44,378 nucleotides of DNA from a virus. Below, piece after piece: positions 14,678 to 24,427 of the stretch. The stretch's first letter is position 1. Each line of letters begins with the position of its first letter. The stretch covers positions 1-44,378 of IMG/VR virus record IMGVR_UViG_3300045988_039715. One strand, given 5' to 3'. The position numbers were made by a program, and so were the translations under genes. The notes below the pieces were generated by a model. That model made no database searches. It was not told the DNA's origin and was given only the letters and a program-made list of their open reading frames with translations.

Positions 14678-14875
14678 TCAAACAATTCTGATTCCTCCCA
14701 GTGTCATCAAATAGAACCACTGCTCCTGAGTAAGGCGTACCTCCTGCTCGTCCAGGAGCTTTGAAATAGAGCCATCGCCGCATCCGATCTCATGGGCAAG
14801 GCCCCTTTGCGACAGCCGGTGCCGCTCCATAGCCCGCTGGGTGATACGACGGATGACCTCATTCGGTGTCATCAT
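14678..14875 (-). CDS. small HTH protein
   Basis: LSQRGLAHEIGCGDGSISKLL HTH pattern. Confidence 0.55.
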   Translation of the reverse strand: MMTPNEVIRRITQRAMERHRLSQRGLAHEIGCGDGSISKLLDEQEVRLTQEQWFYLMTLGGIRIV

Positions 14876-15029
14876 CTGTCCGCCTCCCCATGTATCGAAT
14901 TAAATCCTCAAATGTCATCCCATAAACCTGTTTGTTGAGCCAATCCATTTGGTTTTTGACTGACTCGCCGAGTTTTCCCAGTTCCTCAATGGTGTTGCGG
15001 CGTCCAATTTTTGTCTCTTTCTCTGCCAT
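14859..15029 (-). CDS. 56-aa hypothetical protein (not in the ORF track)
   Basis: Hand translation MAEKETKIGRRNTIEELGKLGESVKNQMDWLNKQVYGMTFEDLIRYMGRRTDDDTE. Overlaps the next start. Confidence 0.4.
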   Translation of the reverse strand: MAEKETKIGRRNTIEELGKLGESVKNQMDWLNKQVYGMTFEDLIRYMGRRTDDDTE

Positions 15030-15047
15030 ATTTTTTTCCTTTCCGGC

Positions 15048-15076
15048 TTGACAGAGAACAGATGTTCTAGTATGAT
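15048..15076 (+). promoter_or_regulatory. near-consensus sigma-70-type promoter TTGACA-N17-TATGAT
   Basis: TTGACA at 15048-15053 and TATGAT at 15071-15076, with an exact 17-nt spacer. Confidence 0.7.
15055..15068. promoter_or_regulatory. LexA (Cheo-type) box AGAACAGATGTTCT inside the promoter spacer
   Basis: Perfect GAAC-N4-GTTC palindrome. Compare the Bacillus LexA/DinR consensus CGAACRNRYGTTYC. Confidence 0.6.
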
Positions 15077-15082
15077 ATATCC

Positions 15083-15157
15083 ATCAAGCCTAATTGGTCT
15101 GGTCAGTTAGGTTTGCCAGCCTCGTCAGGTGTGCCACCACCTGGCGGGGCGATTTTT
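15083..15157 (+). ncRNA. candidate ~75-nt SOS-controlled small RNA
   Basis: Lies between the promoter above and an intrinsic terminator. Has stem-loop 1 at 15086-15093/15107-15114, and no ATG or RBS. Confidence 0.5.
15120..15157 (+). terminator. intrinsic terminator, plus-strand specific
   Basis: 12-bp stem at 15120-15131/15138-15149. Its two G-U pairs become C-A mismatches on the other strand. Followed by CGATTTTT. Confidence 0.65.
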
Positions 15158-15944: not shown

Positions 15945-16896
15945 TCACCATCCTTACCATGTCCTTATATTTAGTAATGACCTCAACGCCTCTGTCCAAC
16001 TCTCTCATAGCAGCATCACGCCCAGCAGGGATATCAAGCATTTCCCGATGGACAAGAACCATGTGCTGCTTTAGGGACGCATCCAACGCTTTGATAGCCG
16101 TGTGGATTAGCTCTTGAAATTCTGCCACAGTGAAGGGTGGAGTCGGCTCCACCGGCGCTACCTTTGGGATTGGGCGAAGGATCGCCCTCACTGTGTCCGT
16201 ATCGCCTTTTTTGATAGCTTCCACAACCTCGCGTTTCTTTTCCTCTGGAGCATTGCGGATTTCAGAGATAACGGACTTGGGGGCTTTCACAGAACCGGAT
16301 AGGACGGCCTCTTTGATACCAGGAGAAACCTTTTCGGCCTCATCAAGTCCGCGCCCAAACTCTACAGCTCTTCTTACTTCGCTTTCTTTAATTCCGTGTT
16401 CTTTCGCTACAACTTTTCTGGCCTGAAACATCTCTCCCGAACTGTTTGGTAATTGGTCGTTTTGGCCATTTACCACTTTCACATACTGATTTCCCCGAAA
16501 TCCATCGGCGGCTCCATGCGTTTTGACAAGCGCATCATGTTCTTCTTTGAGAAGGTAATCGCGTTGCGCCAGTGTCACATTCCTTCTCCCCAACTGGTTC
16601 CGGCACATCCAAACAATAGCGGCCCACTTATCAGAGAAGTCCATCTGCTTCACTTTGAAAGGGATTTCAGGATGCTTCTGGACAATTTTGTAACGGTGGT
16701 GGCCGTCAATGATAGTGTTGTGCCATACCACCAGCGGTTCCCGAACTTCTCCATCCGCAACAATATTCTCTTCCAGTTTGGAGAACTCGTCTGCTGACAA
16801 AGGCGGTATTTTGTCCCGAAATTCAGGGTCAATTGTTAACTGCCTCAATTTTAAATTTCCTCCTTGTATTCCGTCCCGCACCATGCTAAAATACAA
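15922..16896 (-). CDS. ParB N-terminal-domain (ParB-like nuclease) protein
   Basis: IDPEFRDKIPPLSADEFSKLEENIVADGEVREPLVVWHNTIIDGHHRY. A TTG at 16848 behind an AAGGAGG RBS is the likelier start. Confidence 0.7.
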   Translation of the reverse strand: MYFSMVRDGIQGGNLKLRQLTIDPEFRDKIPPLSADEFSKLEENIVADGEVREPLVVWHNTIIDGHHRYKIVQKHPEIPFKVKQMDFSDKWAAIVWMCRNQLGRRNVTLAQRDYLLKEEHDALVKTHGAADGFRGNQYVKVVNGQNDQLPNSSGEMFQARKVVAKEHGIKESEVRRAVEFGRGLDEAEKVSPGIKEAVLSGSVKAPKSVISEIRNAPEEKKREVVEAIKKGDTDTVRAILRPIPKVAPVEPTPPFTVAEFQELIHTAIKALDASLKQHMVLVHREMLDIPAGRDAAMRELDRGVEVITKYKDMVRMVNENGTED

Positions 16897-16956
16897 GGTG
16901 CTAGGACGTGTCCTGTTCTTCCGCCCTCATCCGTGCGCTACCACGGGTGGGGGCAA

Positions 16957-17346
16957 TTATTTTGTTGCTGACAAAGCCACACTCAAAATAGTCTGTAAGC
17001 CGGATAGTCTTTCGTTTACGATTCGCTCAATCCCATCCGCTGCCAGCTCCTCAACCTCCCGCAGCTTGTAAGTAGGCAGGTCTCCCCGTTTGTACTTCAC
17101 CAGTAGCCCCGGCGAGATGTTATAGGCCCAGCTTCCAGTTTCCTGATTCTGTACCCCAAATCCAAAGGGTGCCCTCTGCTCCTGGAGTGCTCGGTACAAT
17201 GTAGCCGTAGACCACCCGATGAACTGGGCCGCCAGATAGGCCGGAACATTGGCGTGTGATAAAATCTCCTCCTCGCTGATTGGTGAGGTTTCTCGTTTCT
17301 TCATGGTATCCTCCTTTCTGGTCATTTTATTGGCCGCTTCCTTCAT
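16957..17346 (-). CDS. excisionase-like/MerR-type HTH DNA-binding protein
   Basis: VPAYLAAQFIGWSTATLYRALQEQRAPFGF. ATG at 17346 (GGAGG RBS), or at 17304 (AAGGAGGA RBS). Confidence 0.5.
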   Translation of the reverse strand: MKEAANKMTRKEDTMKKRETSPISEEEILSHANVPAYLAAQFIGWSTATLYRALQEQRAPFGFGVQNQETGSWAYNISPGLLVKYKRGDLPTYKLREVEELAADGIERIVNERLSGLQTILSVALSATK

Positions 17347-17347
17347 A

Positions 17348-17376
17348 TTTACCTCCGTTCCCTGTCGTGGTATACT
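17348..17376 (+). promoter_or_regulatory. promoter TTTACC-N17-TATACT with extended TG
   Basis: TGgTATACT at 17368-17376, upstream of the GTG-initiated plus-strand gene. Confidence 0.45.
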
Positions 17377-17398: not shown

Positions 17399-17710
17399 GT
17401 GGATATTTTAAGTACAATCGTAGTTCTCGTCCCAAGCGTTCTGTCTTTGTGCATATCTGGAATTTATGCTTATATCGCCCTAAAGAAAGTGAAAGAGCCG
17501 CCGAAAGACGAGATATGGGAGACAGCTACTCGCATCATGTGTTCGTCAGGGCAAAGTACATATGCCGACGAGTTCATAGAACTTTATGTTCAACTGAAAT
17601 TTTTCAAAGAACATCAGGATTTATTCCCCAATATCAAGCCGATCTCTGGCCTGATGGAAGAATACGAAGAACAGAAGAAGGCCATTAGTAGGGCCGTCGG
17701 CCCTCGTTGA
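17399..17710 (+). CDS. opposite-strand moron: small N-terminally membrane-anchored protein
   Basis: GTG at 17399 behind a GGGAGG RBS. N-terminal ILSTIVVLVPSVLSLCISGIYAYIAL helix. Confidence 0.5.
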   Translation: MDILSTIVVLVPSVLSLCISGIYAYIALKKVKEPPKDEIWETATRIMCSSGQSTYADEFIELYVQLKFFKEHQDLFPNIKPISGLMEEYEEQKKAISRAVGPR

Positions 17711-17849
17711 TTTTCCAGAGATTTAATGCAATATCCAACATGACCTTTGAGATTTCTGCCAGATTATCTTCAGGCAATATCCCTGTGGACCGCTCGGAAA
17801 GTAGTTGCAGCTGCTTTTCGAGCGTTTCTTTTATCTGTTGGTTATCCAT
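17685..17849 (-). CDS. 54-aa hypothetical protein (not in the ORF track)
   Basis: Hand translation MDNQQIKETLEKQLQLLSERSTGILPEDNLAEISKVMLDIALNLWKINEGRRPY. RBS GGGTGAGAGGG. Confidence 0.45.
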   Translation of the reverse strand: MDNQQIKETLEKQLQLLSERSTGILPEDNLAEISKVMLDIALNLWKINEGRRPY

Positions 17850-18147: not shown

Positions 18148-18176
18148 TTGACAATTACGGAAAGTTGTAATATACT
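18148..18176 (+). promoter_or_regulatory. rightward promoter TTGACA-N17-TATACT (repressor/lysogeny operon)
   Basis: TTGACA at 18148-18153 and TATACT at 18171-18176. Confidence 0.55.
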
Positions 18177-18223
18177 TATCTTGCCACAGATAATAAATAC
18201 AGCCGTCCGTACTTCATGTGACT

Positions 18224-18252
18224 ATAATATTACTGTTCGCTGTAAAAGTCAA
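18224..18252 (-). promoter_or_regulatory. leftward promoter TTGACT-N17-TATTAT (early operon)
   Basis: Reverse complement of 18247-18252 gives TTGACT and of 18224-18229 gives TATTAT. It faces the rightward promoter. Confidence 0.45.
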
Positions 18253-18308
18253 GTAAAAAGTACGGTCATCTGTAATTTTGCCTTTTTGCACAAATGCCGG
18301 GAGGAATT

Positions 18309-18683
18309 ATGGAAGATTTGTACAAGCATATAGAAGGACTTGGAAGGGAACACGGTTATAAGAACATGACTGTTCTCTGTAAGGCTGCCGGGGTTCCCCG
18401 TTCCACGATGTCGGAATTAAATAATGGGAGAAGCAAAGACCTTTCCAAACCAAACGCCCAAAAATTCGCAGATATTCTGGGAATTACTCTGGATGAGGTA
18501 TATGGAGAAGAAACAAAAAAAGCGCCCACCCAAGAGGATGAGCGCGAGATAACTTTTGATGATTTTACTTTTGCGATGCAAAACGAAAGCAAAGACTTGA
18601 CCGAGGCAGATAAGCAAATCCTTCTATCAATGGCAAAACAGCTTAATGATGCAAGGAAGAAGAGAAATGGAGAATCTAAATAG
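18309..18683 (+). CDS. CI-like XRE-family repressor
   Basis: MTVLCKAAGVPRSTMSELNNGR HTH. ATG at 18309 behind a GGGAGG RBS. Followed by an ImmA-type protease. Confidence 0.75.
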   Translation: MEDLYKHIEGLGREHGYKNMTVLCKAAGVPRSTMSELNNGRSKDLSKPNAQKFADILGITLDEVYGEETKKAPTQEDEREITFDDFTFAMQNESKDLTEADKQILLSMAKQLNDARKKRNGESK

Positions 18684-19116
18684 CCTATATAAATGGTTAG
18701 ACCTAGAGGGAGTCTTTGTATTTGATAGGAGGCTCCCGTTCAGCAAAAAGGATTCTAAAGCGACCACTCTAAAGCTAAAGCCTCCTTATGAAACTTGGGG
18801 CATATTTCTTGACAAGAAAAGGTTGAAAACAAAGGCAGAGGAAAAATCCGCTGTGCTTCATGAGTGTGGGCACTATGCAACGGGAGCCACCCATGAAGTA
18901 AACAGTCCGTTCGATCTTGTTGCGAAGCATGAATACAAAGCAGACAAATGGGCTGTCGAACGGGCGCTGTCAGTCGATGAACTAGACGATGCTGTGGCAG
19001 AAGGTCATACAGAAATTTGGGATCTAGCTGAGTATTTTGGAGTAACTGAGGACTTCATGCGAAAGGCCGTCTGTTGGTATACCTACGGGAATTTGGCGAC
19101 GGAGTTGTATTTTTAG
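18667..19116 (+). CDS. ImmA/IrrE-family metallopeptidase (anti-repressor protease)
   Basis: HExxH motif in VLHECGHYATG. Overlaps the repressor stop. Confidence 0.75.
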   Translation: MENLNSLYKWLDLEGVFVFDRRLPFSKKDSKATTLKLKPPYETWGIFLDKKRLKTKAEEKSAVLHECGHYATGATHEVNSPFDLVAKHEYKADKWAVERALSVDELDDAVAEGHTEIWDLAEYFGVTEDFMRKAVCWYTYGNLATELYF

Positions 19117-24328: not shown

Positions 24329-24427
24329 ATATCACACGTCCTTTGTATAAAAATAAGGAGTCCGTGAGGAGGGCGGCGACGTGTACCAACCCTTGATCCT
24401 CACGTCCTCCATGTCTATATTGTCGCA

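Follow-up and report, generated by a model that had tools for sequence, protein, structure and literature searches.

A promoter that points against the early genes of a temperate phage raises the question of what it makes, what switches it on and what its product acts upon. We analyzed such a promoter in the viral record IMGVR_UViG_3300045988_039715, positions 1 to 44,378, a stretch of 44,378 nucleotides (nt) called here the window, whose plus strand is that of the small RNA (sRNA) in question. A first-pass annotation, made from the letters alone, had proposed that this near-consensus promoter, with a palindrome of the LexA-box type in its spacer, drives a short, terminated plus-strand transcript antisense to the early operon. 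That reading came through all of the computational tests run. It is highly probable that the sRNA gene is real and independently transcribed, and the explanation that we favor overall, with reasonable confidence, is that of a cis-antisense sRNA of about 75 nt, gated by the SOS response and acting on the early mRNA much as the OOP RNA of phage lambda does.

Strand-specific structure of a terminated RNA

The promoter consists of TTGACA and TATGAT separated by a 17-nt spacer, at the positions first proposed (Table 1), and matches the consensus at 11/12; four sites of at least 11/12 are present in the 44-kb window, against 0.68 expected from shuffles. The unit downstream has neither an ATG nor a ribosome-binding site, as the annotation had noted, and 1-nt indels in loop length among homologues disrupt every reading frame within it. 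Its 8-bp stem-loop (15086-93/15107-14) exists and is lengthened in the minimum free energy (MFE) structure, and the terminator stem, described earlier as 12 bp, extends to 13 bp, including nine G-C pairs, before the sequence TTTTT. Read on the minus strand, the terminator stem is weakened by C·A mismatches and no T-run follows it.

The 75-nt plus-strand RNA folds with an MFE of -39.7 kcal/mol (z -6.1), equaled by none of 200 shuffles; the corresponding values for its reverse complement are -25 kcal/mol and z -2.3. We aligned 41 distinct versions of the RNA, giving 820 base-pair cells, and folded them with RNAalifold, which returned a consensus made of a 5' hairpin and a terminator. Standard pairs occupy 99.8% of these cells on the plus strand, whereas only 83.5% pair in the minus-strand reading, and we therefore conclude that the plus-strand RNA is under selection. 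The G-U pairs of the terminator, said by the annotation to become C-A mismatches on the minus strand, turn out to be a property of the whole family, in which every one of 134 G·U cells among the 41 homologues converts to C·A. When the 3' partners are slid, pairing falls to 27–48%. Compensatory change is found in seven pairs, with a covariation score matched by none of 500 shuffles. Six of these pairs belong to the terminator, and the 5' hairpin of close relatives contributes a single A-U/G-C swap (31:10). An alignment extended to divergent members shows covariation in 10 pairs, of which the 5' hairpin contributes four; this alignment is model-fitted and so biased towards structure. Conservation is distributed unevenly along the RNA: the stem of the 5' hairpin, a single-stranded AUCAA at the 5' end and the linker are near-invariant, the terminator stem drifts freely, and the hairpin loop is the most variable part.

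The same intergenic unit accompanies relatives of the neighboring ParB-like protein in viral contigs. A DNA pattern for the 5' hairpin gave matches in 52 viral and 86 metagenomic stretches, most of which carry the label human gut. Among species-representative genomes it matched two, those of Muriventricola aceti H5_61 and of an uncultured Ruminococcaceae bacterium. For the genomes the pattern was loosened and its matches were mostly due to chance, with 2 of the 44 stretches judged real by the covariance model. That model scores 92.8 bits at the window locus and 79–95 bits in 65 related loci. BLAST and the covariance model located a divergent copy (63.7 bits) in the Flavonifractor plautii phage Chenonceau, which is among 13 induced prophages of the OMM12 consortium (PMC10197239). 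The GenBank record of this phage (L124 3160-4023) places short plus-strand open reading frames (ORFs), probably on the wrong strand, over the small protein gene that adjoins the sRNA promoter and over the promoter itself, and leaves the sRNA unannotated. Since copies occur in Oscillospiraceae/Ruminococcaceae genomes and in a Flavonifractor phage, the host clade is taken to be Oscillospiraceae/Ruminococcaceae, class Clostridia.

A search of Rfam 15 gave no family at the locus, at either the gathering or a permissive threshold, and returned only noise (mir-184 at 23 bits, Spot_42 at 13 bits); a tRNA/tmRNA search also found nothing. The sRNA is abundant, with about 160 copies across the two genomes and the viral and metagenomic contigs from the human gut, yet it is missing from Rfam, and it appears to represent an undescribed phage RNA family, predicted to work like OOP. 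We know of almost no regulatory RNAs from phages that infect the dominant gut Clostridia, and experiments are feasible, since one family member belongs to an inducible phage whose OMM12 host strain can be cultivated.

A LexA-type palindrome in the promoter spacer

The promoter spacer contains, as first reported, a perfect GAAC-N4-GTTC palindrome, which lies wholly within the 17 nt and hence overlaps the core promoter. A count bore out the remark that the window holds no other copy; with 0.57 copies expected, the presence of the box alone means little. We examined 162 pattern matches, a few of which were chance, and found the window-type promoter (type A) in 108 of them, which reduce to 10 different sequences of 29 nt; the copy in Muriventricola aceti H5_61 is of type A. 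In all 108 instances the -35 and both arms, GAAC and GTTC, are unchanged, and the variable columns are limited to N4 positions 1–3, two spacer positions 3' of the box and position 4 of the -10. Six versions of N4 occur (AGAT, GGAT, GAAT, AAGT, GTTT and AATT), all of which start with a purine and end with T, in keeping with the Gram-positive consensus CGAACRNRYGTTYC; the window box itself combines a perfect core with an RNRY spacer. This consensus comes from the Firmicutes and Clostridium literature and is applied here to an Oscillospiraceae host clade. Its core was present in 39 of 40 Firmicutes lexA promoters in a footprinting study (PMC2248561), and Clostridium species use GAAC-N4-GTT[TC] (PMC4234289).

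Related phage loci, 1.27 Mb in total, contain 136 boxes against ~19 expected from base composition, and 103 of them are in the sRNA promoter. Most of the others belong to a second, unrelated promoter, TTGCAA or TTGAAA-17-TATAAT, that carries TAGAAC-N4-GTTCTA in its spacer, with fixed arms and a varying N4. This promoter drives a 44-residue ORF (MEQKNENVDILKKEIELVLDRNKDENYLKSLL...) followed by a terminator, for example at L045 3679-3878, and is also present in L022, L025, L030, L041, L053, L066, L068 and others. The ORF is convergent with the gene of a 122-residue helix-turn-helix (HTH) repressor that lacks a neighboring ImmA gene, and the unit looks like a LexA-controlled small antirepressor module. 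Both box-bearing promoters are found in seven loci, and the type of sRNA promoter shows no correlation with the type of immunity module (ImmA-type versus LexA-box small-ORF modules).

The window has an immunity region of the ImmA type, and domain matches substantiate the ImmA/repressor pair named by the annotation: HTH_26/HTH_3 at 18294-18683 and Peptidase_M78 (ImmA-type) at 18646-19116, both encoded by the plus strand. From a promoter at 18252-18224, which falls within a divergent promoter region at ~18150-18250, the minus-strand early operon extends leftward. The divergent promoters, at 18148-76 (+) and 18252-24 (-), enclose three or four inverted repeats of the TACRG-N-YGTA type (18153-18277), which probably serve the HTH repressor as operators and are unlike the box, AGAACA..TGTTCT. 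Host LexA is the best candidate binder of the box because of the conservation of the arms, the motif described in the literature, the second box-bearing promoter and the distinct immunity operators, and we consider it probable that the sRNA promoter is LexA-repressed.

The -35, the 17-nt spacer and the -10 are kept in all variant classes of the promoter, even where the sequence is otherwise unrelated. Types B and C (TTGACA-17-TACAKT) precede the same RNA, and the canonical box is replaced by a GTAC-N4-GTTC that overlaps the -10. In loci such as L004, L006 and L045, this altered box reads GGTAC-ATT-TGTTCT or AGTAC-AGT-TGTTCT, and its GTAC half resembles the immunity half-site of the phage. The altered box also fits RGTACNNNDGTWCB (PMC2248561), a cyanobacterial LexA consensus. 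Types D–H and phage Chenonceau retain the promoter geometry, the 5' hairpin and the terminator but have no box. Their spacers contain GGAGG, which forms an inverted repeat with the CCTCC coding for the Shine–Dalgarno (SD) sequence of the adjoining small gene, and the predicted fold of the minus-strand mRNA sequesters this SD in four of the five box-less sequences folded (L124 3960-4012, L011, L014, L015, L018). The anti-SD (CCUCC) can alternatively pair with the complement of the sRNA 5' end, as seen by eye in a handful of sequences, so that in box-less relatives the sRNA could flip a translational switch; the arrangement may be one of three parts. Because relatives keep the promoter and the RNA in the absence of the box, LexA control would be an optional, variant-specific addition. 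The forms with a LexA box, an altered box and no box provide a natural comparison of what the SOS input adds.

The conserved cassette and its proposed action

On the terminator side of the RNA, at least 10 unrelated proteins end 73–80 nt from the RNA start in different phages. The annotation had stressed that the 3' end overlaps the stop codon of the ParB-like gene; the overlap is present, but its significance does not stand, since the upstream gene is interchangeable, the overlap incidental and the terminator a mosaic junction. On the -35 side, a member of a family of small proteins of 48–70 residues is encoded in every instance where the sequence is readable, and the 65-residue HTH-like gene nearly always follows it, in promoter types A, B and C alike. 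The HTH-like protein has weak PHROG matches, one of them to a transcriptional regulator family, and shows no correlation with the promoter type next to it. The small protein is charged and has 16 database homologues, all hypothetical or unnamed, with no match in Pfam, PHROG, NCBIfam or the PDB; its AlphaFold model is a two-helix hairpin (pLDDT 70). A scan, together with inspection by eye, gave no minus-strand promoter from which the small gene could be expressed separately, as a divergent unit. What is conserved as a module is thus the sRNA with its promoter, together with the small gene and the HTH-like gene. The predicted minus-strand fold also includes a GGCUUGA/UCAAGCC helix that brackets the promoter and lies 5' of the small-gene SD. 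Relatives have analogous minus-strand helices in different registers, and type A, as found in the window, has no anti-SD.

Table 1 Features of the sRNA locus in the window.
Feature	Position	Strand	Remarks
-35 hexamer TTGACA	15048..15053	+	sRNA promoter; same in 10/10 distinct type-A promoters
-10 hexamer TATGAT	15071..15076	+	17-nt spacer from -35; only position 4 differs (G/C/T) among type-A homologues
Cheo-type LexA box AGAACAGATGTTCT	15055..15068	no strand	AGAAC-AGAT-GTTCT; arms AGAACA/TGTTCT around a GA center; inside promoter spacer
Predicted ~75-nt non-coding sRNA	15083..15157	+	start placed 7 nt past the -10 and end placed at the U-tract, both by prediction
5' hairpin	15085..15115	+	15085-97 pairs with 15103-15 (MFE); near-invariant stem, variable loop
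Intrinsic terminator	15119..15157	+	13-bp G+C-rich stem 15119-31/15138-50, 6-nt loop, TTTTT 15153-57
Inverted repeat GGCTTGA (15045-51)/TCAAGCC (15084-90)	15045..15090	-	encloses entire promoter; read from sequence
56-residue small protein gene	14859..15029	-	SD 15038-44 (GGAAAGG, minus strand) adjoins the -35; constant partner of the sRNA
65-residue HTH-like gene	14678..14875	-	overlaps end of small gene; second constant partner
DUF6551 (ParB-like) gene, 262 residues	15156..15944	-	Pfam PF20188, E 2.8e-42; stop codon 15156-58 beneath terminator T-tract

The window contains three further features of interest. A second antisense unit of promoter, hairpin and terminator is located at 16864-16964 (+), where TTGTAT (16864-69), a 17-nt spacer and TGcTAAAAT (16887-92) precede ~65 nt that include the palindrome AGGAC-GT-GTCCT and a terminator (16923-54). 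Its -35 adjoins the SD of a gene for a 308-residue ParB-N-like protein (start TTG 16848); the sRNA model scores 24.5 bits on it, mostly from the terminator, and the unit is conserved in L118, L100 and L076. A full-length Rfam RAGATH-31 RNA, the only Rfam match in the window, is found at 24357-24410 (-), with 84.4 bits against a gathering threshold of 71.8. A plus-strand gene (~17400-17710; 103 residues in identical metagenome contigs) lies among the minus-strand genes of the early operon. A promoter-like site (17348-17376) and two plus-strand terminators (17690-17704 and 17791-17824) accompany this gene, which may be a 'moron' expressed in the lysogen from a promoter of its own and ended by its own terminator.

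In the mechanism that we propose, the near-consensus sigma-A promoter (15048-76) would fire opposite to the early lytic operon, and the transcript would fold its 5' hairpin and stop at the intrinsic terminator (15119-57). As the operator fills the promoter spacer, host LexA should hold the RNA off in undamaged cells until RecA-triggered cleavage of LexA switches it on, alongside the ImmA-dependent derepression of the early operon. The RNA would pair along all of its 75 nt with the early polycistronic mRNA, at a site immediately before the small gene's ribosome-binding site. The duplex would alter expression of the cassette of small gene and HTH-like gene and of the replication genes behind it. 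The route may be that of OOP on cII, through RNase III cleavage and/or remodeling of the mRNA leader, with changed processing, stability or translation, and head-on transcriptional interference possibly contributes. Sequence and comparison establish the promoter, the plus-strand structure of the RNA, its lack of coding capacity, the conservation of the box and the linkage to the small gene. That LexA binds, that SOS induces the RNA, which target it has and in which direction it acts we infer, and we put action in cis on the adjacent early mRNA at about even chances. If the mechanism is true, the RNA would be made in prophage induction and not in the infection of an undamaged cell, so that the phage distinguishes induction in a damaged cell from a fresh infection of a healthy one, and a temperate phage of an obligate anaerobe would use host LexA besides its ImmR/ImmA switch.

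Other explanations can be offered both for the palindrome and for the RNA. A phage regulator, either the 65-residue HTH-like protein or a CI-like repressor, could be the factor that binds the box, in which case the sRNA would report the state of the phage and not SOS. The box indeed lies in phage DNA beside an HTH-like gene that travels with the cassette, and both classes of box-bearing promoter were seen only in phage loci. The same HTH-like protein, however, accompanies types A, B and C despite their different operators, and the immunity operators do not resemble the box, whose motif and RNRY bias exactly fit the Firmicutes LexA consensus; moreover, the second box promoter drives a small ORF beside a short, ImmA-less repressor, a classical place for LexA control. 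We regard a phage regulator as very unlikely for these reasons. It is barely credible that the arms and spacer are kept as an RNA hairpin in the leader of the early minus-strand mRNA instead of as a DNA operator: invariant arms around a variable center also suit a stem-loop, and a small hairpin is present in the predicted minus-strand fold, but the arms show no compensatory change, the 5-bp A/U-rich stem would be very weak, and the same motif is found in the non-transcribed spacer of an unrelated promoter.

For the RNA itself, a trans-acting role, with a protein or an mRNA of host or phage as the target and the antisense position secondary, would explain why the hairpin stem, AUCAA and linker hardly vary although the terminator drifts, a constraint that exceeds the needs of a cis-acting RNA, and would suit a unit that moves as a cassette between differing upstream genes. 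We nonetheless find it unlikely, given that complementarity elsewhere in the window does not exceed 10 nt, the chance level, that the hairpin loop, the usual seed of trans-acting sRNAs, varies most, and that the strict linkage to the small-gene SD is better explained by local action. Quite unlikely, too, is a role confined to DNA or transcription, in which head-on promoter interference or a LexA roadblock matters and the terminated RNA is a by-product. Selection on the 5' hairpin and on the plus-strand wobble pairs would be unexpected for a by-product, for which a terminator alone suffices, and a LexA roadblock cannot account for the box-less relatives; what speaks for such a role is the strength of a near-consensus promoter, a terminator that confines the antisense transcript to the intergenic gap, and a -35 that in every variant, as also in the unit at 16864-16964, lies directly beside the SD of the early gene that follows.

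Several points weigh against the SOS-gated, cis-antisense reading that we prefer. The start site, termination and LexA binding are predictions, and the box is flanked by A/T where the consensus has C/G. Since types B and C have an altered box and types D–H and phage Chenonceau none, LexA control is not essential for the function of the RNA. An antisense RNA induced by SOS against the phage's own early operon is counter-intuitive, and lambda OOP is credited with at most a minor role after SOS induction (PMC2327240). The sRNA leaves the SD and start codon of the small gene uncovered, and in a simple fold of the window mRNA the accessibility of the SD is unchanged when the sRNA target is masked (0.77 vs 0.78); SD occlusion is accordingly not claimed for the window variant. 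The near-invariance of the 5' hairpin, beyond what a pure cis-antisense RNA needs, hints at a protein partner, a trans target or a structure in the mRNA. Within the phage, exact complementarity at chance level and a duplex-energy scan with no outlier beyond the cis site yielded no trans target.

A broader scheme, which we put forward as doubtful but worth stating, is that Oscillospiraceae phages of the gut set modular riboregulatory cassettes before early genes and that the window unit is one of these. The 5' end of the sRNA (UCAAGCC...) would equal one arm of the mRNA-leader helix, strand displacement would switch translation of the small protein and the HTH-like protein, and the spacer would serve as an exchangeable sensor slot, filled by a LexA box here and by an anti-SD in types D–H and Chenonceau. 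Such a cassette, if true, would be a new design principle for the timing of phage early genes, beyond mRNA destabilization of the OOP type.

Relation to known regulatory RNAs and SOS-linked modules

The window RNA is like lambda OOP (77 nt, from promoter pO) in that both are short, non-coding, ended by a terminator and directed against the early operon of a temperate phage (rightward in lambda), and each runs from an intergenic gap to the 3' end of the gene upstream. The promoter pO carries a LexA site (PMC5869508, citing Lewis 1994) and OOP acts via RNase III cleavage of the cII sense mRNA (PMC2327240, citing Krinke and Wulff 1990). The two RNAs share no sequence or structural homology, the window locus has no Rfam match, and they differ in host phylum and LexA motif (a Cheo box here, CTG-N10-CAG for OOP). 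OOP overlaps ~50 nt of the cII coding sequence, whereas the window RNA covers only the stop codon of an interchangeable gene; it is linked to the small gene downstream, and its LexA control is found in one promoter variant only.

The Escherichia coli pairs IstR-2/tisB and SymR/symE also combine SOS control with short antisense RNAs on an adjacent mRNA (PMC2577331 and PMC1891008). Both are type I toxin-antitoxin systems of the chromosome and encode a toxic peptide or protein, whereas the partner in the window is a charged two-helix protein. We rejected a type I toxin-antitoxin locus because no hydrophobic toxin ORF lies opposite or beside the RNA; plus-strand ORFs have no SD, and the indels break their frames.

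LexA-controlled antirepressor modules of phages, of the 186 Tum, Gifsy and N15 types, wire host LexA to a phage promoter as a damage sensor. Relatives of the window phage come close to this design with their box-bearing promoter before the 44-residue ORF next to a repressor, but in the window the product of the LexA-box promoter would be a non-coding RNA within the early operon, and the immunity switch is of the ImmR/ImmA type. The sar RNA of phage P22 and other phage countertranscripts are small antisense RNAs, constitutive or regulated, whose source lies within an operon that they modulate; sar covers the ribosome-binding site of ant, whereas the window RNA ends ~40 nt short of the small-gene SD. 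Among these systems, the element reads as a phage cis-antisense sRNA with a putative SOS-controlled promoter, and as what appears to be a new and fairly abundant RNA family of gut Clostridia phages, not a homologue of OOP.

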